Assembly (NCBI GenBank): GCA_038245295.1
Contig: JBBRSP010000001.1
Coordinates: 160,001-224,000 of the forward strand
Length of the DNA stretch: 64,000 nt
Source of the DNA: Candidatus Binatia bacterium
GTDB taxonomy: Bacteria > Desulfobacterota > Binatia > HRBIN30
Direction: 5' to 3'
Each line of letters begins with the position of its first letter. The stretch's first letter is position 1. A model generated the notes under the pieces. The model was given only the letters and a program-made list of their open reading frames with translations. It was not told the origin of the DNA and made no database searches. Shown piece by piece: positions 19,817 through 32,520 of this stretch. Position numbers and translations under genes: made by a program.

Positions 19817-20908
19817 CTACGCAGCGTCGCTGCCGATCGCTTGACGGATATGCGACAAGCCCTGGCGCTCGACCAGTTGCCCGAGATCCTGATTGATATG
19901 ACGCGGCAGTGCCGGGCCGCCATAGATGAGGCTGGTATAGATCTGTACCAGTGAAGCGCCGGCGCGGATCTTCTCGTAGGCCTCGGCGGCACTGGCCACG
20001 CCGCCCACACCAATGATCGGCAAGCGCTCGGCGCAGCGCTTGTACAACGTGCGGATCACCTGCGTTGACAAGGTGCGCAGCGGCCTCCCACTCAAGCCGC
20101 CGGCCTCGTCGCAGGCGACGGTCAACCCGTCGCGCCGCAGCGTCGTGTTGGTAGCGATGATACCGCTGGCGCGTTCTTCCAAGGCGACGTCGACCGCGGC
20201 GGCGAGGCCGTCCTCCGACAGGTCGGGCGCCAGCTTGATCAGGATCGGACGCGGCGAGACCTCGTGGGTTCGCGCCAGTCGCTCATTCTCCTCCCGCAGC
20301 GGACCCAGCAGGGCGCGCAGCTGCGACTCGCCCTGCAAGTCGCGCAGCCCCGGTGTGTTCGGCGAGCTGACGTTGACGACGATATAGTCGGCGTGGCGGA
20401 AGAGTTTGTTGAGACTGACCAGGTAGTCGTCGACGGCGACCTCAATGGGTGTGACGCGCGACTTGCCGAGATTGAGCCCGATCGGCACCGGCGGGCGACC
20501 GGCGGCGAAGGACGTTGTCAAACGCGCGGCGACGGCGGCGGCTCCCTCGTTGTTGAATCCCATGCGATTGATGAGAGCGCCATCGGCGGGCAGCCGAAAG
20601 AGGCGCGGCCGCGGATTGCCGGGTTGCGCGTGAGCGGTGATCGTCCCGAGCTCGACGAAGCCGAAACCCAGGCGCGGCCACACATGTGGCGCGATGGCAT
20701 TCTTGTCGAGTCCGGCGGCGAGGCCCAGCGGGTTCGGAAACGACAGGCCCCAGAGCGACTGTGCCAGAGTCGGCACTGGTTTCTCTGCCCGTGTGGTGCG
20801 CTGCGCCAATCGTTGCGCCTGGCGTAGTGCTGCGAAGGCAAGGTTGTGAGCCGACTCGGCATCCAATCGGAAGAGCAGCGGACGGACGAGACGATACCAG
20901 TTGATCAC
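19817..20908 (-). CDS. pyrD: Quinone-dependent dihydroorotate dehydrogenase
   Basis: GLAAGLDKN, INRMGFNN, NVSSPNTPGLR, GGLSG motifs. Confidence 0.97.
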   Translation of the reverse strand: MINWYRLVRPLLFRLDAESAHNLAFAALRQAQRLAQRTTRAEKPVPTLAQSLWGLSFPNPLGLAAGLDKNAIAPHVWPRLGFGFVELGTITAHAQPGNPRPRLFRLPADGALINRMGFNNEGAAAVAARLTTSFAAGRPPVPIGLNLGKSRVTPIEVAVDDYLVSLNKLFRHADYIVVNVSSPNTPGLRDLQGESQLRALLGPLREENERLARTHEVSPRPILIKLAPDLSEDGLAAAVDVALEERASGIIATNTTLRRDGLTVACDEAGGLSGRPLRTLSTQVIRTLYKRCAERLPIIGVGGVASAAEAYEKIRAGASLVQIYTSLIYGGPALPRHINQDLGQLVERQGLSHIRQAIGSDAA

Positions 20909-21357
20909 GCCCCCAGCCTCCGCCGCGCTTCGGCCCGCAGGCTGGCGAGCTCGGCGTCGTCGATGTTGCGGACGACGTAACGATCCCCCGAGCTCAGGTT
21001 GGCGACGACATGTGCTTCGATGTCGACGCGCAGGCGGTCGCCGTGTTTGATGGCGCCGGTTTCCTCGATGATCAGCGCCGGCAGGCCAAGCTGCAGTGCC
21101 TGGCGCAGGAACTGCACGCCGAAGCTCCTGGCGATCACAGCGGCGATGTGGCGGGTGTTCAACGCGGCGATGGCGCGGCGCTGCTCGGCATCGGTGGCAA
21201 ACGAAAGTCCGGCCACCAGGAAGTCACCAACCGCGATATCGCTGGCGAACGAAGGCTGAAGAATCTCATCGCTGCCGATGTTGTCGCCGCAGCAACAGGC
21301 GCGACCATTCATTGCCAGCAGAGAGTCCTCGTCGGCGCGCAGATCTTCGTACTTCAT
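20905..21357 (-). CDS. LeuD/aconitase swivel-domain-like protein with degenerate motifs
   Basis: GDNIGSDEI, GDFLVAG, AVIARSF, GLP motifs; the GCGSSRE motif is absent. Confidence 0.7.
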   Translation of the reverse strand: MKYEDLRADEDSLLAMNGRACCCGDNIGSDEILQPSFASDIAVGDFLVAGLSFATDAEQRRAIAALNTRHIAAVIARSFGVQFLRQALQLGLPALIIEETGAIKHGDRLRVDIEAHVVANLSSGDRYVVRNIDDAELASLRAEARRRLGA

Positions 21358-21591: not shown

Positions 21592-21612
21592 GATTATCGT
21601 ATTACGATAATC
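21592..21612. promoter_or_regulatory. Perfect 10-1-10 palindrome, probable transcription-factor operator
   Basis: GATTATCGTA-T-TACGATAATC in an AT-rich patch between divergent units. Confidence 0.65.
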
Positions 21613-21652
21613 TTTCTTCTGGCCACATTAAAAAAAACGTGATACGGGATTT

Positions 21653-22103
21653 CTCGATTGGTTCGAGGTCGACACAGGCCTCCTGGCCGCAGACAGCTTA
21701 ATGGTAGGCTGCCAGTGGTGAACCAAGCTGGATGCCGGCAGTCGGCGGCCGGTGTCTGGTGGTGGGTTGGGGCCCGCCCTCGGTTTCGGCGCCGAGAAAG
21801 GAGGTGGTCCAGCGATGATGATCCCTACGGCGAGCTGTGAGGTGGTGACCCCTTAGGTCAGTACATTGGGCGACGAGTTTCGCGCTCCATCGTGCCGGCA
21901 GGCGACCGCTGCCTTGCGGTTCCGGTCAACGCCTGTGCTGGTGACACGAGTGACGAATCCTCAGACGAGGTGAGAGAAATCCACTAACCGTCAATCGTAC
22001 CGATGTTTCGCCTGGGGAACCCAGGCGCCATCGCCCCCAGGAGCTTCCCGCGATATCGCCCGCGGGGCGGCCAAGCCGTAAACAGCTCCTGGGGATTTTT
22101 TAT
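21653..22103 (+). ncRNA. Candidate structured RNA carrying a 19-nt anti-16S-3'-end segment and a 13-codon mini-ORF
   Basis: No credible protein ORF; multiple hairpins; AGAAAGGAGGTGGTCCAGC at 21795-21813; ends in a stem plus T-tract. Confidence 0.5.
22035..22103 (+). terminator. Branched stem followed by a T-tract (intrinsic terminator-like)
   Basis: ccccaggagct (22035-45) pairs with agctcctgggg (22084-94), followed by attttttat. Confidence 0.6.
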
Positions 22104-22253
22104 CTCCGCCCGTGCCCCCGCCCATGCCCGCTCTCCCATCCGGCTCTGAGCAAAACCGAGCGGCTCGACGAACCTCCAAACGTCCGCCACATGGTCCCCA
22201 TGAATTGAACCAACGCGGGCGTCTGCTTATAAGGAGCGCCCCGGAGGAGAGTT

Positions 22254-23414
22254 ATGCCCAAAGCGTATGCCATTACCGCGGCGGCGATCGCCGCGGAGCG
22301 TAAGCGTGTAAATGACGACCTGGAAAAGGTCGACGTCTCGCGCATCATCCACTTGGACGACGTGCAATTGCGGCCGCTCGGTAAGAGCGACGTTCATATG
22401 CGTGTTCTGGCGGTATCCGCCGAGCACAATATCGAGCACGCGGCGCTGGCCGATACGGTGAACATCGCCGAAGCGCGCGGCGGCAAGATGTACCCGGGCA
22501 ACAGCGCCCTGGGCGAAGTGTTGGCGGTGGGTGAATCGGTCAAGCGCTTCAAGGCCGGCGACATTGTCATCACCCATTGCAACGGCGAGCCCGATCGTTT
22601 CGGTTACCCGATGCGCATTTGGGCCTACGACCAGCCCGACTCGATCGGCTGGTACGGCGAGGAGGCGGTTGTCGGTGACTGGCAACTCATCCCCGCGCCC
22701 CTGAAGTGCGGCCTGAACTTGTGGGAGATCGCCGCGCTGCCGCTACGCGCCCCGACGGCCTATCATCTGTGGCGCCGCGCCCACGGCATCTATCGGCTCA
22801 AGGTCTCGCTGGAGCGTCAGGCGCGTCTCAACGTGCTCGGTTTCGGCGGCGGCGTCTCGGAGCTCTTCCTGATGCTCGCCAAGGCCGAAGGCCACCAGGC
22901 GTTCTTTTGCTCGGGCAGCCCGGAGCGTCGCGATTTCCTGGCCAAGCAGGGCATCACGCCGATCGACCAGAAGAAGTTCAATCGCTTCGCCAAGAGCGAC
23001 GACGTGCGTGCCTTCAGCAAGGAGATCAAAAAGCTTACGAACGGCGAAGGCATGCACCTGGTGTGCGACATGTTGCGCGGGCCGGTGTTTGAGGCCGGCG
23101 TAACCGCCCTCGGCCGCCAGGGTGTCAACGTCAGCGCCGGTTGGCAGCTGGCGCGTGAGTGTACCTACAACTCGGCCGGCTTGTCGGTGAAGCAGATCAC
23201 CCTCGACCATACGCATTACGACACCGTCGATGGCGCCAACGCGTGCACCGATCTCTACGGTAACGTCTTCAAGCCGACGATCCATAAAGAGATCTACGCC
23301 TTCGCCGACCTGCCGCGCTGCTTCGACGAGATGCAGCGCAACACGCAGACCGGAATTCCGATCGTGCGCGTCGCCGAGCGTATGCCGGCGGCTGTCGAGG
23401 CGCTTTGTTCCTAG
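22254..23414 (+). CDS. Atypical MDR-superfamily oxidoreductase
   Basis: GEVLAVGESVKRFKAGD GroES-like segment; GFGGGVS nucleotide-binding loop; GGAGGAG RBS. Confidence 0.8.
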   Translation: MPKAYAITAAAIAAERKRVNDDLEKVDVSRIIHLDDVQLRPLGKSDVHMRVLAVSAEHNIEHAALADTVNIAEARGGKMYPGNSALGEVLAVGESVKRFKAGDIVITHCNGEPDRFGYPMRIWAYDQPDSIGWYGEEAVVGDWQLIPAPLKCGLNLWEIAALPLRAPTAYHLWRRAHGIYRLKVSLERQARLNVLGFGGGVSELFLMLAKAEGHQAFFCSGSPERRDFLAKQGITPIDQKKFNRFAKSDDVRAFSKEIKKLTNGEGMHLVCDMLRGPVFEAGVTALGRQGVNVSAGWQLARECTYNSAGLSVKQITLDHTHYDTVDGANACTDLYGNVFKPTIHKEIYAFADLPRCFDEMQRNTQTGIPIVRVAERMPAAVEALCS

Positions 23415-23539
23415 CGTGACGTGAGTCCCCGGAGCGGAAGTGCAAAGGGGGAGGGTGACGCAGCTTTTGCACGTACCTTGGCATTGGCACGCCGCTTCAG
23501 CCTGCGCCGTGCAGTGGCGAATAATTTATGCGCAAAGCA

Positions 23540-23593
23540 CCCTCACCCCAACCCTCTCCCAGGGTCGCACGCTCCGGGCGATGTGGGAGAGGG
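23540..23593. repeat. REP-like element CCCTCACCCCAACCCTCTCCC...GGGAGAGGG
   Basis: ccctctccca pairs with tgggagaggg. Confidence 0.7.
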
Positions 23594-23695
23594 ACTGTCA
23601 GCGCTTCACCGTGCCCCGTGGAAAACGAGCAAAATCAGCCCATCATTCGAATACATCGCGTTTCGAGTCGTCGGGAGGGCACCGTGCGGGGCAAG

Positions 23696-25060
23696 ATGAA
23701 GTCAATTCCGGGGCTATACCGGCAGCCGATGCTGCGCTTTGCTCGCCGTGGCGGCCAGGTTCTGCTGTTGGTGATGGCCGCCTCCATTTGCCTAAACCCT
23801 GCCTGGGCCGGAGATGCCCTGGCGCCGCAGGCCTACAACGATGACGCTATGCTGGCGCACCTTCTGTGGACCCATTCTACCGCCGTCTTGAATGCGCGGG
23901 CGGCTGCCGCCACCGCTGAAAGCGAGGCGTTGCGTGCCGGGCTGTATCCGAACCCGGAATTGGACACCGCCTGGTCCTCGATTCCCGTTGGTCGCAGCAA
24001 CCCGCCGGGCCTTTCTCACCCCTTGAGCAACGTACCCAATTACAGTGCCGCCCTGTCGGAATTGGTCGAGATCGGCAAACGTGGTCCGCGTCAGGCTGCC
24101 ACCAAAGCGGACGTCGAGCGCGCCGCTGCGGAAGCCCAGGCTGCACTCGGGGATCGCTTCTTTGCCCTGCTCGATCGTATCGGGGCGATGGCCTCGAGCC
24201 AACAGCGCGCCGGGGTTCTGGATGAGCAGGTGCGTGACAGTCAGGAGTTGCTGAACCTGTACCGCTTGCGGGCCAGCAAAGGCGAGATCGCCGTCCTCGA
24301 CGCCGACGTGGTCGAGGTCGAACACGCGCAGGCCATCGTGACACGCGATGCCGTCTTGAGCGAGTTGTCGGCGGCTCAGGCCGAGTGCGCCGGTATTCTG
24401 TCCCTGCCGTGTCCACTGTTTGCCTCGAGCGACTCGGCGCAAGCTTTCCTCGAATCGGCCGCTGCACCGACTCTGCCGACGCAGTGGTCGGAGGACGCCG
24501 AGCAACGGCGCCCTGACCTGGCGGCGCTGGCGGCGGCGACCAATGCTGCCGACCAACGACTGGTTCTGGCCAATCGAAAAATCATTCCTGACGTGACCGT
24601 GCGCCTGGGCTATACGTACGACGAGTTCATCGTTTCGGGAAATCAGCGCAACAGCTTGGCCGTCGGTCTACAGATCCCCTTGCCTGTGCTTGATCGTGGT
24701 CAGGCCGACAAAGCTGCGGCGGCGGCGGAAGCGGAGCGTAGTCGGCGAATTCGACAAGCAACGTTGGCGGTGGCGCCCGGTATTGTTGAGAACGCCGTGC
24801 GCCGACGCGAATTGCTGCGTCGCCGTTTGGAGCACCTCGATTCGGCGATCGAGAAGGCGCGGTCGGTGCGTGAGTCGCTGGCGGCGGCCTTACGCGCCGG
24901 CGGAACGTCCCTCATCGAAGTATTGGTGGCGCGGCGTTCGTATCAGGACCTGGTGCGCGAACGCGTCGACCTCGACGCCGAAGGATTCAATACGGCGCTG
25001 GCGGTACGCCAAGCCCTTGCTCTGTTTCCCCGCCCTGAAGGATCGGAAAACGACCTATGA
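23696..25060 (+). CDS. TolC/CzcC-family outer membrane factor (start uncertain: 23684, 23696 or later)
   Basis: YPNPEL, IGKRGPR, RRPDLAA, QIPLPVLDRGQ motifs. Confidence 0.9.
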   Translation: MKSIPGLYRQPMLRFARRGGQVLLLVMAASICLNPAWAGDALAPQAYNDDAMLAHLLWTHSTAVLNARAAAATAESEALRAGLYPNPELDTAWSSIPVGRSNPPGLSHPLSNVPNYSAALSELVEIGKRGPRQAATKADVERAAAEAQAALGDRFFALLDRIGAMASSQQRAGVLDEQVRDSQELLNLYRLRASKGEIAVLDADVVEVEHAQAIVTRDAVLSELSAAQAECAGILSLPCPLFASSDSAQAFLESAAAPTLPTQWSEDAEQRRPDLAALAAATNAADQRLVLANRKIIPDVTVRLGYTYDEFIVSGNQRNSLAVGLQIPLPVLDRGQADKAAAAAEAERSRRIRQATLAVAPGIVENAVRRRELLRRRLEHLDSAIEKARSVRESLAAALRAGGTSLIEVLVARRSYQDLVRERVDLDAEGFNTALAVRQALALFPRPEGSENDL

Positions 25061-26247
25061 GTGACTTGACTCTTGAACGCAGCAAACCCGGTCCGGCGGG
25101 CACAGCTTTCCCTGGCCGCGTCGTCGGAATGGTATTGGCGGCCGTCGTCGTCGCTGGTCTGGCCTTCTACTACTTGCAACCCCATCTGATCGAGCGTCCC
25201 GCCGAGCCTCCTTTCAAGGTGGAGGGGCAACACGTCGAGATTCAGAAGGACTCTCCCACCTGGGGTTACATCGAAGTCGGTGAAGCCAAACTCCAGGCCG
25301 CCTTGGCCGCCGAACCCGTCCCGGGGCGAGTCGCGTTTGACGAAGCCTTTGCCGTACCGATCGTGGCTCCGCTGGCCGGGCGCGTCGACACGGTGAGCGT
25401 CCGCATTGGCGATCCGATCGTCGCCGGGGCGCGGCTGCTCACGGTGCGCTCACCTGCGTTTGTTGATCTACGCCAGCAGATCGAAGTTCTGCGCGCCAGC
25501 GAGGCGGCGCGGCGCAAGACGCTGGAACGCGTGCGGTCTCTCGTCGAGCTCAAGGCCGCTCCTGAGAAGGATCAGTTGGCAGCCGAGTTGGAGCTCAATC
25601 AAGTTCGACTCGAGCGCGAAGGCGCTGAGCTCAAGTTGCGCAGCAGCCCGATCGAAGATGGCGGCAATGGTTCCTACTGGTTGGTGTCGCCCCGCGACGG
25701 TGCCGTGGTGGAACGCAAAGTCCTTGTGGGTGAGGAAGTTGGTCCCGAGCGTAGCGAGCCGCTGTTGGTCGTGGCGCAGCTCGACGAAGTGATCATCGCG
25801 GCCGACGTGCCGGAGCATGATGTCGCTTGGATCCACGTCGGTGACACGGCGCAGGTCTTCTCGCCGGCGACGCCGGAAGACACCATTCAGGGCAAGGTGG
25901 AATACGTCAGCGAAGTCGTCGATCCGGTGCGGCGCATGGTCAATGTCCGTGTCCGCGTCGCCAACCCAGGCCATCGTCTGCGGCCTAATGCGTATGTGCA
26001 AGCCTCATTTTCCCCGGGTGATCGTCAATCGTTGGTCGTGCCGGCGCAGGCCGTTGTGACCGACGATCAGCACGCCTTCGTTTTCGTCGAGGCGAGCAAC
26101 AATCCGCGCCGCCTGGAGCGTCGGATGGTGGCGGTCGGCCGCCAACGTGAAGGACAGGTTGAGATCGTTCAGGGGCTAAAACCGGGGGAGCGCATCGTCA
26201 CACAAGGCGCCATCCTTTTACTGAATGCGGTTAGCCTCGCTGAGTAG
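25057..26247 (+). CDS. RND efflux periplasmic adaptor (CzcB-like)
   Basis: N-terminal TM; SPRDGAVVE, VVDPVRRMV, GLKPGERIV motifs. Confidence 0.92.
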   Translation: MSDLTLERSKPGPAGTAFPGRVVGMVLAAVVVAGLAFYYLQPHLIERPAEPPFKVEGQHVEIQKDSPTWGYIEVGEAKLQAALAAEPVPGRVAFDEAFAVPIVAPLAGRVDTVSVRIGDPIVAGARLLTVRSPAFVDLRQQIEVLRASEAARRKTLERVRSLVELKAAPEKDQLAAELELNQVRLEREGAELKLRSSPIEDGGNGSYWLVSPRDGAVVERKVLVGEEVGPERSEPLLVVAQLDEVIIAADVPEHDVAWIHVGDTAQVFSPATPEDTIQGKVEYVSEVVDPVRRMVNVRVRVANPGHRLRPNAYVQASFSPGDRQSLVVPAQAVVTDDQHAFVFVEASNNPRRLERRMVAVGRQREGQVEIVQGLKPGERIVTQGAILLLNAVSLAE

Positions 26248-26253
26248 TGTTCG

Positions 26254-29200
26254 ATGGTCGAGCGGCTCGTCCAACTGGCGCTGCAGAATCGCACCGCGGT
26301 TCTGTTCTTCACGCTCGTCGTCATCATTGCGGGTGTGTTTGCCTTTCGCGGCCTGACGATTGAGGCGTTTCCCGATCCCACAGACACCCAGGTCAATGTC
26401 ATCACCCTGTTCGCCGGTCAGCCGGCCGAGGAAGTCGAGCGCCAGATCGGCTTGCCGCTCGAGCGTGCCTTGAATGGCACGCCCGGGCTGACGCGCCTGC
26501 GCAATCTGTCGCTGTTCGGGCTGTCGTACGTCACCCTGACCTTTGCCGATGGCGTCGAACCGTTATTCGCGCGCTCCCAGGTCCTCGAACGTCTACGCGA
26601 CGCCAGCTTGCCCCAGGATGTCGTGCCCGAGCTTGGTCCGATGGCGACGCCGATTGGGGAGATCTATCGCTACACGCTCGGTGGCGGTGGCGACGACCCG
26701 ATGCGGCTGCGAACGCTGCAAGAGTGGGTCGTCGGTCCGCGCTTGCGGCGCGCCGCCGGTGTTGCCGACGTCGTCAACTACGGTGGCCTGGTGCGTGAGG
26801 TGCACGTGCAACCGTCGCCGGCGCGGCTGGCCGCCTACGGGTTGACTCTCGAGGATCTCGAAACTGCTTTGAAGCGAGGCTCGTTCAACGCCAGCGGTGG
26901 CATCCTCGAACGCGGTTCCGAACATCTGGTGATCCGCAGCCAGGGCTTGTTTCGCAATCTCGACGACATCGGCGAGGTTCATGTCGCCACCCGCGATGGC
27001 ACCCCGGTGCGCATCCGCGACATTGCTTCGGTCAACGACGGCTGGGCCCAGCGCCAGGGCGTTGTCAGCCGCGGCCCGCAGAGCGACGTTGTCGAAGGTA
27101 TCGTCCTGATGCGTCGCGGCGAGAATCCGTCGGCGGTTCTCGATCGCGTGCGCGAGGCGGTAGAAGAGCTCAATACGCATATCTTGCCGGATGGGGTTCA
27201 GGTGCGGCCCTTCTATGATCGTACCGATCTGGTCAGCACGACGCTGCACACGGTCGGGCACAACCTGCTCGAAGGGGCGGTGTTGGTCGTTCTGGTGCTT
27301 TACGCTTTTTTGCTCGATCTGCCGGCGGCGCTGATCGTTGCGTCGTTGATTCCGTTGTCCCTGATGTCGGCGTTCATCTACCTCAAGATGCGTGGCATGA
27401 GCGCCAACCTCCTGAGCATGGGCGCCGTCGACTTCGGTATCATTGTCGACGGTGCCGTGGTGATCATCGAGAGCATCGTGCAGCGACTTGCCAGCCGCCA
27501 CGGCGAGGAGTCGGGCGGGCAAAGGGTTGCGCCCGACATCTTGCTCGCGCGCATTCGTCTGGCCGTCAACGATGTCGTACGACCCACCGTGTTCTCCCTG
27601 ATGATCATCATCGCCGCCTACCTGCCGATCTTCCTGCTGGAGCGCGTCGAGGGACGCATCTTCGCACCGATGTCGAACACCGTGGTGGCGGCGCTGATCG
27701 GTGCCTTGTTCTTTTCCGTCACGCTGGTGCCGATCCTGGCCGCGTTGGTGTATCGCCGGCCATTGAAACACCGGACCTCGCCGATCCTCGTCTTCGCGCA
27801 ACGACTGTATGATCCTTCGCTTGCCTGGGCCCTGCGCCGGCCTGTGTGGGTGCTCGGCGGTAGTGTCGTGGCGCTCGTCGGTGCGGTTGTCCTGCTCGGA
27901 ACACAAGGCTCGGAGTTTTTGCCCGAGCTGAACGAGGGGTCGCTCTATTTGACCTTCACCCTGCCGTCGAACATCAGCCTGAACGAGGGCCGCCGCCTGG
28001 TGCCGCAGATCACGCGCATCCTGCGCCAGTACCCGGAAGTCAAAGAGGTGTTGTCGCAGCTCGGTCGGCCGGAGGACGGCACAGATCCGACGTTGTCCAA
28101 CAACCTCGAGTATTTCGTTCGTCTCAATCCGCCGGAGGAGTGGCCGCCGAAACTGCGCACGCTGTCGGACGTGATCGAAGATCTCGACCGTGGCCTGCGT
28201 GAAATTCCCGGACTGGAGGTGAACTTTTCGCAACCGATCCGCGACAACGTCAATGAGAATATCTCGGGACAGTTTGGTCAGATCGCCCTCAAGATCTACG
28301 GCGACGATCTGAAGGTACTCCAGGATCTCGCCGAGAAGACCCAGGGCGTCGTGGCCGACGTCGCCGGCGTTGCCGACCTCGGCATCGTCAAGAGCAGCGA
28401 GATTCCGCAATTGCAGATCGAGCCAAACCGCGCCGCGCTTGGACGGTACGGTCTCGACATGGAGAGCTTCCAGCACGTCTTGCAGGCCGCGCTGGGGGGG
28501 CAACCGGTGGAAGTTCTGTGGTCGGGCGAGGCCCGCTTCGACATCGTCATGCGCTACCCGGCAACGGCGCGGGCCGACATCGAAAAGATCCGTAAGTTGC
28601 GGGTGCCGGTGCAAGGCGGAATCACCGTGCCGATGGAGACGTTGGCACAGATCGACGTCGGCCGCGGCCGCGCCGCCATCAGTCGCGAGAACGGCCATCG
28701 CTACGTCGGCATCCGTATGAACGTGCGTGGTCGCGACATGGGTTCGTTCGTCGATGAGGCACGCGCCAGCGTAGCCGCCAAGGTGCCGCTGCCGCAGGGC
28801 TTCTCTATGGAGTGGGGCGGCGAGTTCGAGAGTAAGGAACGCGCCATGCGACGTCTGACCCTGGTCGTGCCGCTGGCCCTGCTCATCACGCTGGCCCTGC
28901 TGTTCAATGCCTTCGGTAAGTTCGCGCCGGCGGTTCTGGTGCTGCTCAATGTGCCGTTTGCTCTCGTCGGCGGCGTGGCGGCGCTGGCCCTGGTGGGCAT
29001 GCCGCTGTCGGTGTCGGCGGCGGTCGGGTTCATCGCGCTGATCGGCCAGGCGTCGCTGAACGGCGTGCTCGTGCTGTCGGCCATCCTGGAACGCGAGGCA
29101 GAGGGCAAGCCGCTGCTGGAGGCGATTCGCCAGGGTTGTCGCGAGCGCCTGCGCCCGGTCTTGATGACCGCCGTTCTTGCGGCGCTCGGTCTGGTGCCGG

Positions 29201-29412
29201 CGGCCATGAGCCGCGCCATCGGCAGCGAGGTGCAACGGCCGATCGCCGTGGTGATCGTCGGTGGGACGGTGAGCGCGTGTTTGCTGACTCTGTTGGTGTT
29301 GCCGGCAATGTACCGTCTGTGGAGCGAAACGCGCGATCGTTTTTTTACGGGTTTCAATTTCAGTGACTGGCGCCTGGGTGGGGAAGGAGCAGGGCCTGAC
29401 GTCACGGCGTAG
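26254..29412 (+). CDS. CusA/CzcA-family HME-RND transporter, copy 1
   Basis: IEAFPD, GAVDFGIIVDGAVVIIE, RLRPVLMTA motifs. Confidence 0.96.
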   Translation: MVERLVQLALQNRTAVLFFTLVVIIAGVFAFRGLTIEAFPDPTDTQVNVITLFAGQPAEEVERQIGLPLERALNGTPGLTRLRNLSLFGLSYVTLTFADGVEPLFARSQVLERLRDASLPQDVVPELGPMATPIGEIYRYTLGGGGDDPMRLRTLQEWVVGPRLRRAAGVADVVNYGGLVREVHVQPSPARLAAYGLTLEDLETALKRGSFNASGGILERGSEHLVIRSQGLFRNLDDIGEVHVATRDGTPVRIRDIASVNDGWAQRQGVVSRGPQSDVVEGIVLMRRGENPSAVLDRVREAVEELNTHILPDGVQVRPFYDRTDLVSTTLHTVGHNLLEGAVLVVLVLYAFLLDLPAALIVASLIPLSLMSAFIYLKMRGMSANLLSMGAVDFGIIVDGAVVIIESIVQRLASRHGEESGGQRVAPDILLARIRLAVNDVVRPTVFSLMIIIAAYLPIFLLERVEGRIFAPMSNTVVAALIGALFFSVTLVPILAALVYRRPLKHRTSPILVFAQRLYDPSLAWALRRPVWVLGGSVVALVGAVVLLGTQGSEFLPELNEGSLYLTFTLPSNISLNEGRRLVPQITRILRQYPEVKEVLSQLGRPEDGTDPTLSNNLEYFVRLNPPEEWPPKLRTLSDVIEDLDRGLREIPGLEVNFSQPIRDNVNENISGQFGQIALKIYGDDLKVLQDLAEKTQGVVADVAGVADLGIVKSSEIPQLQIEPNRAALGRYGLDMESFQHVLQAALGGQPVEVLWSGEARFDIVMRYPATARADIEKIRKLRVPVQGGITVPMETLAQIDVGRGRAAISRENGHRYVGIRMNVRGRDMGSFVDEARASVAAKVPLPQGFSMEWGGEFESKERAMRRLTLVVPLALLITLALLFNAFGKFAPAVLVLLNVPFALVGGVAALALVGMPLSVSAAVGFIALIGQASLNGVLVLSAILEREAEGKPLLEAIRQGCRERLRPVLMTAVLAALGLVPAAMSRAIGSEVQRPIAVVIVGGTVSACLLTLLVLPAMYRLWSETRDRFFTGFNFSDWRLGGEGAGPDVTA

Positions 29413-29418
29413 GGAGTC

Positions 29419-32400
29419 ATGTTCGATCATCTAGTTCGTTTTGCCATTCGCAATCGTAGCGCTGTTCTCTTCTTTACGTTGGTCGTGATCATCGGCGGCT
29501 GGTCTTCGTTTCGTCAACTGACGATCGAGGCGTTCCCCGACCCGACGGATACACAGGTCAACGTCATCACCTTGTTCCCCGGCCAGGCGGCCGAGGAAGT
29601 CGAACGCCAGCTCGGCCTGCCTGTCGAGCGGGCGCTCAACGGTACGCCGGGCCTGACCCGACTGCGCAATCTGTCGCTATTCGGATTGTCGTTCGTGACA
29701 CTGACGTTTGACGACGGCATCGATCCGCTTTTTGCGCGCGCCCAGGTGCTGGAGCGGTTGCGTGACGCCGACCTGCCCGACGGAATTGCTCCGGAGCTCG
29801 GGCCACTCGCGACGCCTATCGGGGAGATCTACCGCTACACCTTGTCGGGCGCCGATCCGATGAAGCTGCGCACCCTTCAAGACTGGGTCGTGCGGCCACG
29901 ACTGTTGCGCGCCGCCGGTGTTGCCGACGTAGTCAGTTACGGCGGCTTGGTGCGCGAAATCCACGTCCAGCCGGCCCCGGCGCGTCTGGCTGCCTACGGC
30001 CTGACGATGGAGGATCTCGAAACGGCTCTAAAAAAGTCGTCGCAGAATGCCAGCGGTGGCATCCTCGAACGCGGTGACGAGCAGATCGTCATTCGCAGTG
30101 AGGGGTTGTTCAGCTCGATGGACGATATCGCCGCGGTCAACGTGGCAACCCACGAGGGCACGCCGGTTCTGGTGCGCGACGTGGCGGCGGTGACGGATGG
30201 TTGGACACCCCGTCAGGGCGTCGTGGCGCGCAACGGCGAGAACGACACGGTCGAAGGCATCGTATTGATGCGGCGTGGCGAGAATCCGTCGGTGGTCTTG
30301 CCCAAGCTGCGTGCGGCAGTCGCCGAGTTGAGTGATCGATCGCTTCCCGATACTGTGAAACTGACGCCGTTCTACGATCGTACCGAGTTGGTCGACACCA
30401 CCCTGCACACGGTCGGCCACAACCTGCTGGAGGGCGCCTTCCTGGTGACCTTCGTGTTGTTCATCTTCCTGCTCGATCTGCGCGCGGCGCTCATCGTGGC
30501 CGTGTTGATCCCGCTCTCGCTGCTCAGCGCATTCATCTACCTGCGCGTGCGCGGCATGAGCGCCAACCTGCTCAGCATGGGCGCGGTCGACTTCGGCATT
30601 ATTGTCGACGGCGCCGTGGTCATCATCGAAAACATCGTTCATAGGCTCAGCCAGGCTGAGGACGGCGAGACCTTGGTCGAGCTTTCCGGACGCGTCGAGC
30701 GGGCGGTGACGGACGTCGTGCGGCCGACCGTCTTTTCCCTGCTCATCATCATCGCCGCCTACCTGCCGATCTTTCTCCTCGAGCGCGTCGAAGGGCGCAT
30801 CTTCGCGCCGATGGCCAATACCGTCGTCGCGGCGCTTCTCGGTGCCTTGTTGTTTTCGGTGACCCTGGTCCCGGTGTTGGCGACCATGGTCTATCGCAAG
30901 CCGATTCGACATCGCGAATCGCCGATTCTGCGTTGGGTGCAGGTCTTCTACGAGCCGACGCTCGACTGGGTGTTGCGCCACTCGGGCATCGTTCTCGGCC
31001 TCAGCCTCGCCGCGCTCGTGGCGGTGGGGGCCAGCGTCGGTCAGCTCGGTTCCGAGTTCTTGCCGGCGCTCAACGAAGGCTCGCTGTGGGTGACGTTCGC
31101 GCTGCCGGCCAACGTCAGCCTGACGCGAGGGCGCAAGCTCATGCCCGAGTTACTTGGTATCCTGCGGCGTTCACCGGCGGTCGACGAGGTCATGGGTCAG
31201 CTCGGTCGTCCGGAAGATGGCACGGACCCGTCGCTGCCGAACAACCTCGAGGTGTTCGTCAAGCTCAAGCCGATGGAGCGATGGCCGGCGCACCTTCCGA
31301 CGATCGACTCGATCGTCGACGACCTGTCGGCTCAGATCGCCATGGTGCCTGGTGTCGAGGTGAACTTCTCACAACCGATCCGTGACAACGTGAACGACAG
31401 CATCTCCGGTCAGAAGGGGCAGATCGCCCTGAAGATTTACGGCGACGACTTGCGTGTCGTGCAAGAGATAGCCGACAACGCGAAGGATGCGATCGCCAAG
31501 GTTACTGGGGTGGCTGATCTCGGCATCGTCAAGAGCAACGAGATTCCACAGCTGCGCGTCCGCCCCGATCGTACGGCGCTGGCACGCTACGGCCTCGACG
31601 TCGACGACTTTCAGCACGCGTTGCAGGCGGCCCTGGGGGGACAGCAGGTGGGTGTGTTCTGGGACGGCGAAGCGCGCCACGACATCGTGTTGCGTTACCC
31701 GAGTGCGGCGCGCGACGACGATGAGAAGATTCGCAAGCTGCGCCTTGCCGTGCCGGGGGCGGCGACGGTGAGCCTCGACATGATGGCGAATGTCTCGATC
31801 ACCCACGGACGAGCGGCGATCAGCCGCGAGAATGGTCACCGCTACATAGGCCTGCGCATGAATGTGCGCGGTCGTGACCTCGGTAGCTTCGTGGACGAGG
31901 CGCGTGCCGCGGTCGACAAGGCCGTGCATCTGCCGAAGGGCGTTGGCCTCGAGTGGGGCGGTGAGTTCGAGAGCAAGGAGCGGGCGATGCACCGTCTGGA
32001 GTTGGTGGTGCCGCTGGCTCTGCTGATCACCCTGGTGCTGCTGTTCAATGCCTTCGGCCAATTCGCGCCGGCGGTGTTGGTGCTTCTCAATACACCGTTT
32101 GCGCTCATCGGCGGCGTGGTGGCGTTGGGAGCGATGGCGATGCCGCTGTCGGTGTCGGCGGCGGTCGGCTTCATTGCCTTGATCGGTCAGGCCTCGCTGA
32201 ATGGCGTTCTCGTGTTGTCGGCGATCATCGAGCGCCGCGCCGCCGGTAGCGGACTCGACGAGGCGATTCGCCAAGGTTGTCTGGATCGACTGCGCCCCGT
32301 CTTGATGACCGCGGCTCTCGCCGCCCTCGGCTTGGTGCCGGCCGCCCTGAGCCACGCGATTGGTAGCGAAGTGCAGCGACCGATCGCGGTGGTCATCGTG

Positions 32401-32520
32401 GGCGGCACGATCAGCGCCTGCTTGCTGACGCTGATCGTCTTGCCGGCGATGTATGGATTGTGGGTTCGGTTCTTAGGCCGAATGAGTAGAGGGTTGTCTA
32501 CGGTCCCAAGCGTCGATTGA
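29419..32520 (+). CDS. CusA/CzcA-family HME-RND transporter, copy 2
   Basis: Same motifs; close tandem paralogue of copy 1. Confidence 0.96.
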   Translation: MFDHLVRFAIRNRSAVLFFTLVVIIGGWSSFRQLTIEAFPDPTDTQVNVITLFPGQAAEEVERQLGLPVERALNGTPGLTRLRNLSLFGLSFVTLTFDDGIDPLFARAQVLERLRDADLPDGIAPELGPLATPIGEIYRYTLSGADPMKLRTLQDWVVRPRLLRAAGVADVVSYGGLVREIHVQPAPARLAAYGLTMEDLETALKKSSQNASGGILERGDEQIVIRSEGLFSSMDDIAAVNVATHEGTPVLVRDVAAVTDGWTPRQGVVARNGENDTVEGIVLMRRGENPSVVLPKLRAAVAELSDRSLPDTVKLTPFYDRTELVDTTLHTVGHNLLEGAFLVTFVLFIFLLDLRAALIVAVLIPLSLLSAFIYLRVRGMSANLLSMGAVDFGIIVDGAVVIIENIVHRLSQAEDGETLVELSGRVERAVTDVVRPTVFSLLIIIAAYLPIFLLERVEGRIFAPMANTVVAALLGALLFSVTLVPVLATMVYRKPIRHRESPILRWVQVFYEPTLDWVLRHSGIVLGLSLAALVAVGASVGQLGSEFLPALNEGSLWVTFALPANVSLTRGRKLMPELLGILRRSPAVDEVMGQLGRPEDGTDPSLPNNLEVFVKLKPMERWPAHLPTIDSIVDDLSAQIAMVPGVEVNFSQPIRDNVNDSISGQKGQIALKIYGDDLRVVQEIADNAKDAIAKVTGVADLGIVKSNEIPQLRVRPDRTALARYGLDVDDFQHALQAALGGQQVGVFWDGEARHDIVLRYPSAARDDDEKIRKLRLAVPGAATVSLDMMANVSITHGRAAISRENGHRYIGLRMNVRGRDLGSFVDEARAAVDKAVHLPKGVGLEWGGEFESKERAMHRLELVVPLALLITLVLLFNAFGQFAPAVLVLLNTPFALIGGVVALGAMAMPLSVSAAVGFIALIGQASLNGVLVLSAIIERRAAGSGLDEAIRQGCLDRLRPVLMTAALAALGLVPAALSHAIGSEVQRPIAVVIVGGTISACLLTLIVLPAMYGLWVRFLGRMSRGLSTVPSVD

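Follow-up and report, generated by a model that had tools for sequence, protein, structure and literature searches.

What is encoded between two genes of a Candidatus Binatia contig, where a long complement to the 3' end of 16S rRNA stands directly before a very short open reading frame? In the window, by which we mean the whole 64,000-nt stretch of DNA analysed, this element has on one side a divergent LeuD-like ORF, followed there by pyrD, and on the other an MDR gene of its own strand at 22254. An earlier note had read it as a structured RNA that traps or sequesters ribosomes, or as a leader of the MDR gene, and possibly as an undescribed RNA class. The divergent ORF (20905–21357, minus strand, 150 aa) resembles the LeuD/homoaconitase small subunit at a score below cut-off, and no adjacent large subunit occurs among the listed ORFs. 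Farther along the plus strand, at 23528–32520, lie what we take to be an outer-membrane factor, a fusion protein and two tandem RND-pump-like genes (1052 and 1033 aa).

A free-standing RNA gene

The region holds a real, single-copy, free-standing and highly folded RNA gene of ~445 nt at about 21656–22101 on the plus strand (its type is called the long form below), its length taken from conservation and its stand-alone status from gene context. The structured RNA seen earlier is thus borne out: it is conserved, its fold covaries, and it is more stable than expected (folding z = −3.84), with none of 100 shuffles as stable as the native region. No second copy was found in its own genome, and the window gave no Rfam match at the gathering score and three chance-level matches (E 2.4–8.2).

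A putative sigma-70-type promoter (Table 1) would place the RNA start near 21655–21657; comparable TGG..(17)..TA spacing occurs upstream of homologues, and a consensus promoter scan called no promoter at this position. Just 5' of it, at 21592–21612, an almost perfect inverted repeat of 10 bp precedes T-rich bases; it is operator- or terminator-like and not evident in homologues. At the other end the three-way junction and T-tract form a probable terminator, and a simple terminator scan did not call the 3' end at ~22101. A short GC-rich REP-like element at 22106–22131 has ~20 similar copies genome-wide, some as close inverted pairs.

Metatranscriptomes of two studies contain the element. Three runs of one study (X1–X3) hold contigs 98–100% alike that start at 21667 and extend up to 22043, and one run of the second study holds related contigs spanning 21668 to 22100. 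In these runs, which were chosen for containing the element and considered as contigs, the flanking genes were without cover in 27 of 30 bins in X1–X3 and had short partial matches only in X4. Since all of this consists of contigs from RNA libraries, we treat it as a weak hint of transcription and not as a demonstration of a discrete transcript or of its level.

Complementarity to the 16S rRNA 3' end

The best-kept feature of the RNA is its complementarity to the 16S rRNA 3' end, and it most likely acts at the ribosome. Tract and mini-ORF have the positions and content described earlier. Because the 16S 3' end of this genome was not found in the assembly, the 16S ends of five relatives of the same order, identical over their last ~45 bases, were used instead. 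Against these the tract forms the 19 contiguous pairs claimed, one of them G-U (−35.4 kcal/mol), and its proposed reach into helix 45 is likewise found, 15 pairs falling on the free tail and 4 on the base of helix 45 if, as we assume, the helix has the limits of the E. coli model. The tract is the sole site in the 6.6-Mb assembly with at least 15 complementary bases (one G-U allowed); shorter complements of the 16S tail number 2 at 14, 5 at 13 and 33 at 12 bases. All 26 aligned homologues keep a tract of 16–23 nt (G-U allowed), which is 19 nt long in 19 of them.

Distribution

Of 40 relatives searched by BLAST, 22 carry the element, and motif and profile searches recover the same 22 with one strong copy each; the 16S complement is conserved in the homologues and the fold covaries. 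It was not found in the other 18, some of them near-complete, so the RNA is not essential. Tract-only matches in relatives lacking the RNA were discarded, 10 of 12 being 16S gene ends and 2 unrelated, as were five weak profile matches (E about 0.008) that fall on 16S gene ends.

The motif occurs as one copy in 54 of 120 genomes of the window's class (control 0) and is patchy by family. Within a 400-genome sample of the phylum, 7 matches outside the class stood against 8 control matches and are therefore treated as chance. A scan of all genomes gave at least 80 loci, namely 72 actinobacterial, 6 acidobacterial, 1 rokubacterial (on a 3.3-kb contig) and 1 labelled Thermodesulfobacteriota among the matches listed; the last is not counted as another phylum because its ORF is of a type seen in the window's class. 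Metagenomes scanned with the tract–GTG junction yielded 80 loci, of which 50 are rreB-type, 18 window-type, 8 Ms_IGR-5-like and 4 other. Viral contigs gave 6 and 13 pattern matches, none with family features by eye, and blastn against phages and plasmids gave none and 11 chance matches, so that no viral or plasmid member was found in these searches.

Fold and covariation

Alignment A1 comprises 26 sequences, the rows L160 (shorter middle), L170 (5' cut) and L186 (short form) having been dropped. A 73-pair model, derived from the same 26 sequences on which it is counted and which are kin, has 94.3% of 1877 cells paired and two-sided change in 39 of the 73 pairs; none of 500 shuffles reaches its score, and slid controls attain at most 45.9%. 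The tract and the first codons are free in this model.

Table 1. Features of the RNA gene, with positions in the window and the basis of each assignment
Feature	Positions	Strand	Basis
Putative sigma-70-type promoter	21620–21648	+	−35-like hexamer 21620–21625, 17-nt spacer, TG, −10-like hexamer 21643–21648; by eye
5' domain I: helix P1 (21658–21664 with 21720–21726) around P2 (conserved ACACAG loop) and P3	21658–21726	+	Covariation
5' domain II: P4 (21727–21760), hairpin P5 (about 21762–21777), probable PK1	21727–21795	+	Covariation of P4; P5 by eye
Extended Shine-Dalgarno tract, complementary to the 16S 3' end over 19 nt	21795–21813	+	Pairing with relatives' 16S
Mini-ORF, 13 aa, MMIPTASCEVVTP*	21815–21856	+	Frame conservation
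Second anti-16S block, facing the helix 45 5' strand and loop in exact register	21822–21831	+	Complementarity; starts nine bases after the tract
PK2 5' strand (ORF +15), pairs with terminal loop 22055–22060	21829–21834	+	Covariation
ORF end and stop codon, paired with 22010–22031 (H1 + H2); alternative hairpin A (21847–21859), its loop kissing hairpin B	21842–21858	+	
Middle domain, ~150 nt, variable stems, conserved GTCAAC motif	21860–22009	+	Conservation; mostly missing beyond the window's order
Downstream strand pairing with the ORF end (or hairpin B and H1 3' strand)	22010–22031	+	Covariation
Terminal three-way junction (22035–22044 with 22085–22094) carrying the PK2 loop, then T-tract	22035–22101	+	Covariation

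Several stems named in the earlier note recur in this fold. The gatgccggc/gccggtgtc stem is P4, which covaries with two-sided change in 10 of 11 pairs, and the terminal three-way junction covaries too, with 98.5% of cells paired and change on both sides in 8 of its 10 closing pairs. Two-sided change is missing in A1 from the GCCTGGG/CCCAGGC hairpin, which is conserved. The proposed long-range cacaggc/gcctgtg pair is formed in 73 of 143 cells over the 21 order-level rows and is not supported, and CGATG/CATCG, which lies where the alignment is poor, is formed in 31 of 103 cells. P1 has two-sided change in 6 of 7 pairs and 98.3% of cells paired, and P2 and P3 are 84.6% and 86.2% paired. Pseudoknot PK1 (21742–21747 with 21790–21795), which reaches the first base of the tract, is probable: it is 95.5% paired and, being invariant with no two-sided change, is unproven.

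PK2 joins the ORF to the terminal loop. It is 93.4% paired in A1, where its third pair is U-A in 15 and C-G in 10 of 25 rows. Of 61 long-form loci with a located loop, 59 keep at least four pairs, the loop having been located by a pattern that itself fixes two of them; the third pair in this set is U-A in 50 and C-G in 11, with two joint changes on the tree. The set leaves out the short forms L341 and L342 as well as L207 and L274, and L347 yielded no loop. PK2 begins at +15 in 14 ATG rows, +18 in 11 GTG rows and +21 in one GTG row, and between +15 and +21 in the class loci. By eye, the terminal loop of metagenome locus L207 seems to pair with CTACGG of the second block, one codon shifted.

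The end of the ORF, with its stop codon, is paired to a distant downstream strand through H1 (97.6% paired) and H2 (98.5%, two-sided change in 4 of 8 pairs). Alternatively it forms hairpin A, which covaries in A1 (one pair G-C in 13, A-U in 10, U-A in 1), and kisses hairpin B, which shows no covariation in A1 and has compensated copies among further class loci. As the two conformers lie only 1.7 kcal/mol apart, a switch between the long helix and the two kissing hairpins is possible. Of two further GAGGTG words, that at 21839 lies within the conserved ORF-end helix and that at 21967 within the variable middle domain. The latter domain has GGTCAAC in 13 of 21 order rows and near variants in the remainder; its closing helix is formed in 55 of 126 cells of the alignment, and its helices are without covariation proof. 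L186, L341 and L342, short forms in one family of the window's class, have neither the 5' domain nor the terminal pseudoknot hairpin.

Mini-ORF and second anti-16S block

The reading frame is kept throughout. The first 20 homologues all have an in-frame ATG or GTG, 13–14 aa and TAG without indels, and an in-frame start, 13–15 aa and TAG are kept in all 26 aligned rows and all 20 additional class loci, length differences among the class loci being whole codons. Among the matches listed from the genome scan, an in-frame start is present in all of at least 80 loci and the ORF has 12 codons in 75. The ORF counts 14 codons from GTG in 11 of the 26 aligned homologues and 13 from ATG in the window. 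Codons 2–5 and the first half of the peptide vary freely. The C-terminal half is fixed at the nucleotide level: the peptide end C-E-V-V is conserved, its codons are the bases that pair in the fold, and there is little synonymous change (TGT in 58 of 62, the GAG GTG codons being preset by the search pattern). The three subfamilies encode different peptides. We infer that the peptide is mostly a by-product, or secondary, and that the job of the RNA is done at the RNA level.

Inside the ORF lies the second block complementary to 16S rRNA. A run of at least 8 bases in register occurs in 30 of 44 distinct long-form sequences, against 1 match over 12 shifted registers; by group it is present in 13 of 23 sequences of the order, 2 of 5 class-level or more distant ones and 15 of 16 metagenome long forms. 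It is missing in the other 14 long forms, is hardly present in short forms and occurs in none of 48 rreB-type loci. At one site in it, prolines are encoded by the rare CCT in 28 of 28 cases, compared with 17 of 237 proline codons in seven ORFs of the window, and no conserved internal pairing partner was found for it (best 74%). A duplex of both blocks with 16S rRNA is predicted at −56.9 kcal/mol; the corresponding values are −25.3 (free tail) and −16.7 (helix 45 itself). Judged from sequence, the block may be selected or may be left over from a beginning as an antisense copy of the 16S end, and its presence prompts one to ask if helix 45 is open to pairing by a bacterial RNA.

A ribosome proposed to be held at initiation, and competing readings

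On the whole analysis we think it somewhat probable that this is a separately transcribed mini-mRNA on which a 30S subunit is loaded and then kept between the long Shine-Dalgarno helix and the pseudoknot; translation would be weak and the peptide secondary. The tract would pair with the entire free 16S 3' tail and load the 30S very tightly, for which rreB offers a precedent. The start codon would then be decoded and a 70S ribosome formed, as frame conservation suggests and as has been weakly shown for rreB. The remaining ORF would be locked by the pseudoknot from +15 and by the long helix over the stop codon, elements that covariation backs, so that the ribosome would be held from behind by an over-long Shine-Dalgarno helix and in front by a folded domain. 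If rreB is a guide, occasional read-through would melt the 3' domain and lead to turnover of the RNA. The outcome would be a small pool of held ribosomes and a readout of active 30S whose 16S tail is intact. Toeprints near +15/+16 mark the leading edge of an initiating ribosome, and across forms the pseudoknot begins at +14 to +21, about this edge. The 5' and middle domains are lineage-specific additions that probably serve as docking surfaces. Against this reading count the variable distance of PK2, its covariation resting mainly on two tree events, its often broken sixth pair, and a single-sequence fold in which much of the tract stays paired. A ribosome-trapping or sequestering sRNA, as first proposed, is retained in being most likely directed at the ribosome, the 16S complement being its best-kept feature; bulk sequestration is doubtful, because 20-fold overproduction of rreB left growth unchanged and its authors doubt simple sequestration (PMC5711450).

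The second function first proposed, a ribosome-stalling leader or attenuator of the MDR gene, draws on the window itself, where that gene starts about 150 nt past the T-tract on the same strand and the ORF ends in Pro-stop. Across the 22 relatives with the element, a same-strand MDR gene lies downstream in none and convergent genes in at least 10 (MDR-family genes in 5, other genes in 5 more, some fragments being short), with a divergent pyrD upstream in 10. On these grounds we reject the attenuator, which we hold to be scarcely credible; moreover, the last codon is elsewhere often Ser, Leu or Arg, and neither an alternative pairing of the terminal stem nor a covarying antiterminator was found. 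The same 22 relatives show no partner gene travelling with the element, which speaks against a protein-binding or trans-pairing regulatory RNA, a sponge or scaffold for which the ribosome would be an anchor for stability. Large conserved domains outside the ORF with the invariant loops ACACAG and GTCAAC would suit such a role, as would the listing of Ms_IGR-5 as an uncharacterised, NAD-capped sRNA in the accessible literature, but these domains are missing in the short forms whereas tract and frame are universal, and we consider it very unlikely.

Conservation of frame, start, stop and the C-E-V-V end in all homologues examined would equally fit a functional micro-peptide gene whose synthesis the long Shine-Dalgarno and the folds keep low until a signal releases it, and in the view of Hahn et al. 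rreB is an mRNA whose peptide is conserved (PMC5711450). This we regard as unlikely: the N-terminal half is free to vary, the conserved codons are fixed as nucleotides (TGT and CCT alike), the peptides of the three subfamilies differ, and RreB and RreR peptides are reported to be unstructured and without effect when overproduced (PMC5711450). The exact register of the second block, its lack of an internal partner and the predicted stability of the two-block duplex would suit an RNA that serves the 16S 3' minor domain as chaperone or checkpoint, pairing with the tail and the helix 45 5' strand and opening the helix in immature, idle or damaged 30S; we rate this as quite improbable. Should the favoured reading of a 30S held between Shine-Dalgarno helix and pseudoknot be true, translation control of a new kind would be exerted by a widely kept RNA built for holding the initiating ribosome. 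The size and folding of the long form suffice for cryo-EM on the 30S.

Comparison with known RNAs

tmRNA (RF00023) has several pseudoknots and, inside it, a short ORF whose stop codon is paired. The long form resembles it in size, in its several pseudoknots and in its short ORF with a paired stop codon; unlike tmRNA it has its own Shine-Dalgarno and start codon. The absence of tmRNA hallmarks stated in the earlier note holds, there being no tRNA-like domain, no ARAGORN call on the window and no Rfam match in it, and tmRNA is present elsewhere in the genome. There, two full-length tmRNA matches over the cut-off (C97:1-373 and C6:171886-172263) and a third, partial one were found, of which ARAGORN called one, through duplication or contamination. 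The 6S model RF00013 gave no match in this genome and exceeded its cut-off in only 4 of 14 control genomes, so a divergent 6S RNA may be unannotated here.

The core of the RNA is related to Ms_IGR-5 (RF02471), CC2171 (RF01867) and the rreB mini-mRNA, of which the long form is an enlarged variant, and the suggestion of a new class therefore falls. Specific to the long form are a ~140-nt 5' domain and the ~150-nt middle domain. From their sequences, Ms_IGR-5, CC2171, rreB and the long form look like one kind. We found no paper linking the three families or describing the long form or its pseudoknots, in a search that most subscription papers lay beyond; the accessible portions of 10.1101/2025.09.11.675593, PMC13009471 and PMC11701678 do not describe the long form, and no confirmation was found for Streptomyces scr4389 as a homologue.

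Homology of the long form with Ms_IGR-5 is well supported. Both have the same tract, the GTGAGGTGG motif at the ORF end with the stop codon, the ORF-end helix, and an ORF-to-terminal-loop pseudoknot in different but complementary letters. Among the matches listed, H1 is present in 61 of 72 actinobacterial loci, and the pseudoknot 5' strand lies at +14 in 59 of 59, where one pair is C-G in 50, U-A in 8, U-G in 1 and C-A in none; 13 of the 72 escaped the helix or loop patterns. The Rfam structure of RF02471 draws neither H1 nor the pseudoknot. Ms_IGR-5 differs in starting about 10 nt 5' of the tract, in its length of ~185 nt and in its 12-codon ORF, often with TTG. Of 16 actinobacterial loci found by the window's motif, 15 pass the RF02471 model at its cut-off of 45 bits and 4 other loci fail, among the matches listed. 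Shorter members of the window's subfamily score 23–37 bits; the window gives nothing at E ≤ 10 and nothing reaching 45 bits, and its own genome is without a match. An nhmmer profile of the 72 actinobacterial loci among the matches listed, with the tract removed, did not find the element. Accessible reports describe Ms_IGR-5 transcripts from M. smegmatis, S. lividans and S. avermitilis, their protection by ribosomes, and ribosome footprints on homologues.

The case for homology with rreB and CC2171 consists of the tract, the geometry of the ORF and, by eye, a comparable helix at its end. The consensus of CC2171, a Caulobacter sRNA of 159 nt and thus unlike the long form in length, opens with the same tract and GUG; the accessible literature assigns it no function. 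On RF01867, whose gathering score is 75, rreB-type loci score 63.3 and 43.3 bits and a class-level short form 30.7, and the window gives no match, nothing in it reaching 75 bits; L186 scores weakly on this model and on RF02471. The rreB/rreR RNAs of Alphaproteobacteria (Hahn et al., RNA Biol 14:1353, PMC5711450) are reported to have, like the long form, a 16S complement of 16–17 nt or more into the start codon and their own promoter and terminator, and rreB shares with the GTG forms of the long RNA the tract–GTG junction and 14 codons. Of the features that define rre RNAs, the window has a complement of at least 16 nt to the 16S 3' end (one G-U within 19 nt, on the relatives' 16S) and a short ORF right after it (13 codons from ATG, where rre RNAs have 14–18 from GTG or ATG); the third, a stand-alone transcript of about 165 nt, does not apply at ~445 nt. 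By eye, the ORF end of rreB-type metagenome copies also pairs with a downstream strand. Unlike the long form, rreB/rreR measure 165 rather than about 445 nt, have no 5' or middle domain and encode an unrelated peptide, and the accessible text of that paper predicts the rreB tract to be self-paired and describes no pseudoknot (PMC5711450). The B. japonicum rreB, with a 17-nt complement, is reported to co-sediment with 30S and to be weakly translated, and its turnover requires its start codon (PMC5711450).

A bolder proposal is that Ms_IGR-5, CC2171, rreB/rreR and the long form make up one cross-phylum class of ribosome-clamping RNAs, and that the two antisense blocks of the long form open helix 45, as a guide or chaperone of the 30S decoding end (for storage or as a checkpoint of maturation), the RNA alternating between pairing with rRNA and being a pseudoknotted mRNA; as a whole we offer this as a long shot. 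This kind of RNA is already in print, and what is added here is the long-form architecture, the cross-phylum link and the helix-45 block. Three sRNAs catalogued separately, from Actinobacteria and from Alphaproteobacteria, seem to be of the same design as the long form, and the shared design allows precise tests in easy hosts such as M. smegmatis, Streptomyces, Caulobacter and Bradyrhizobium.
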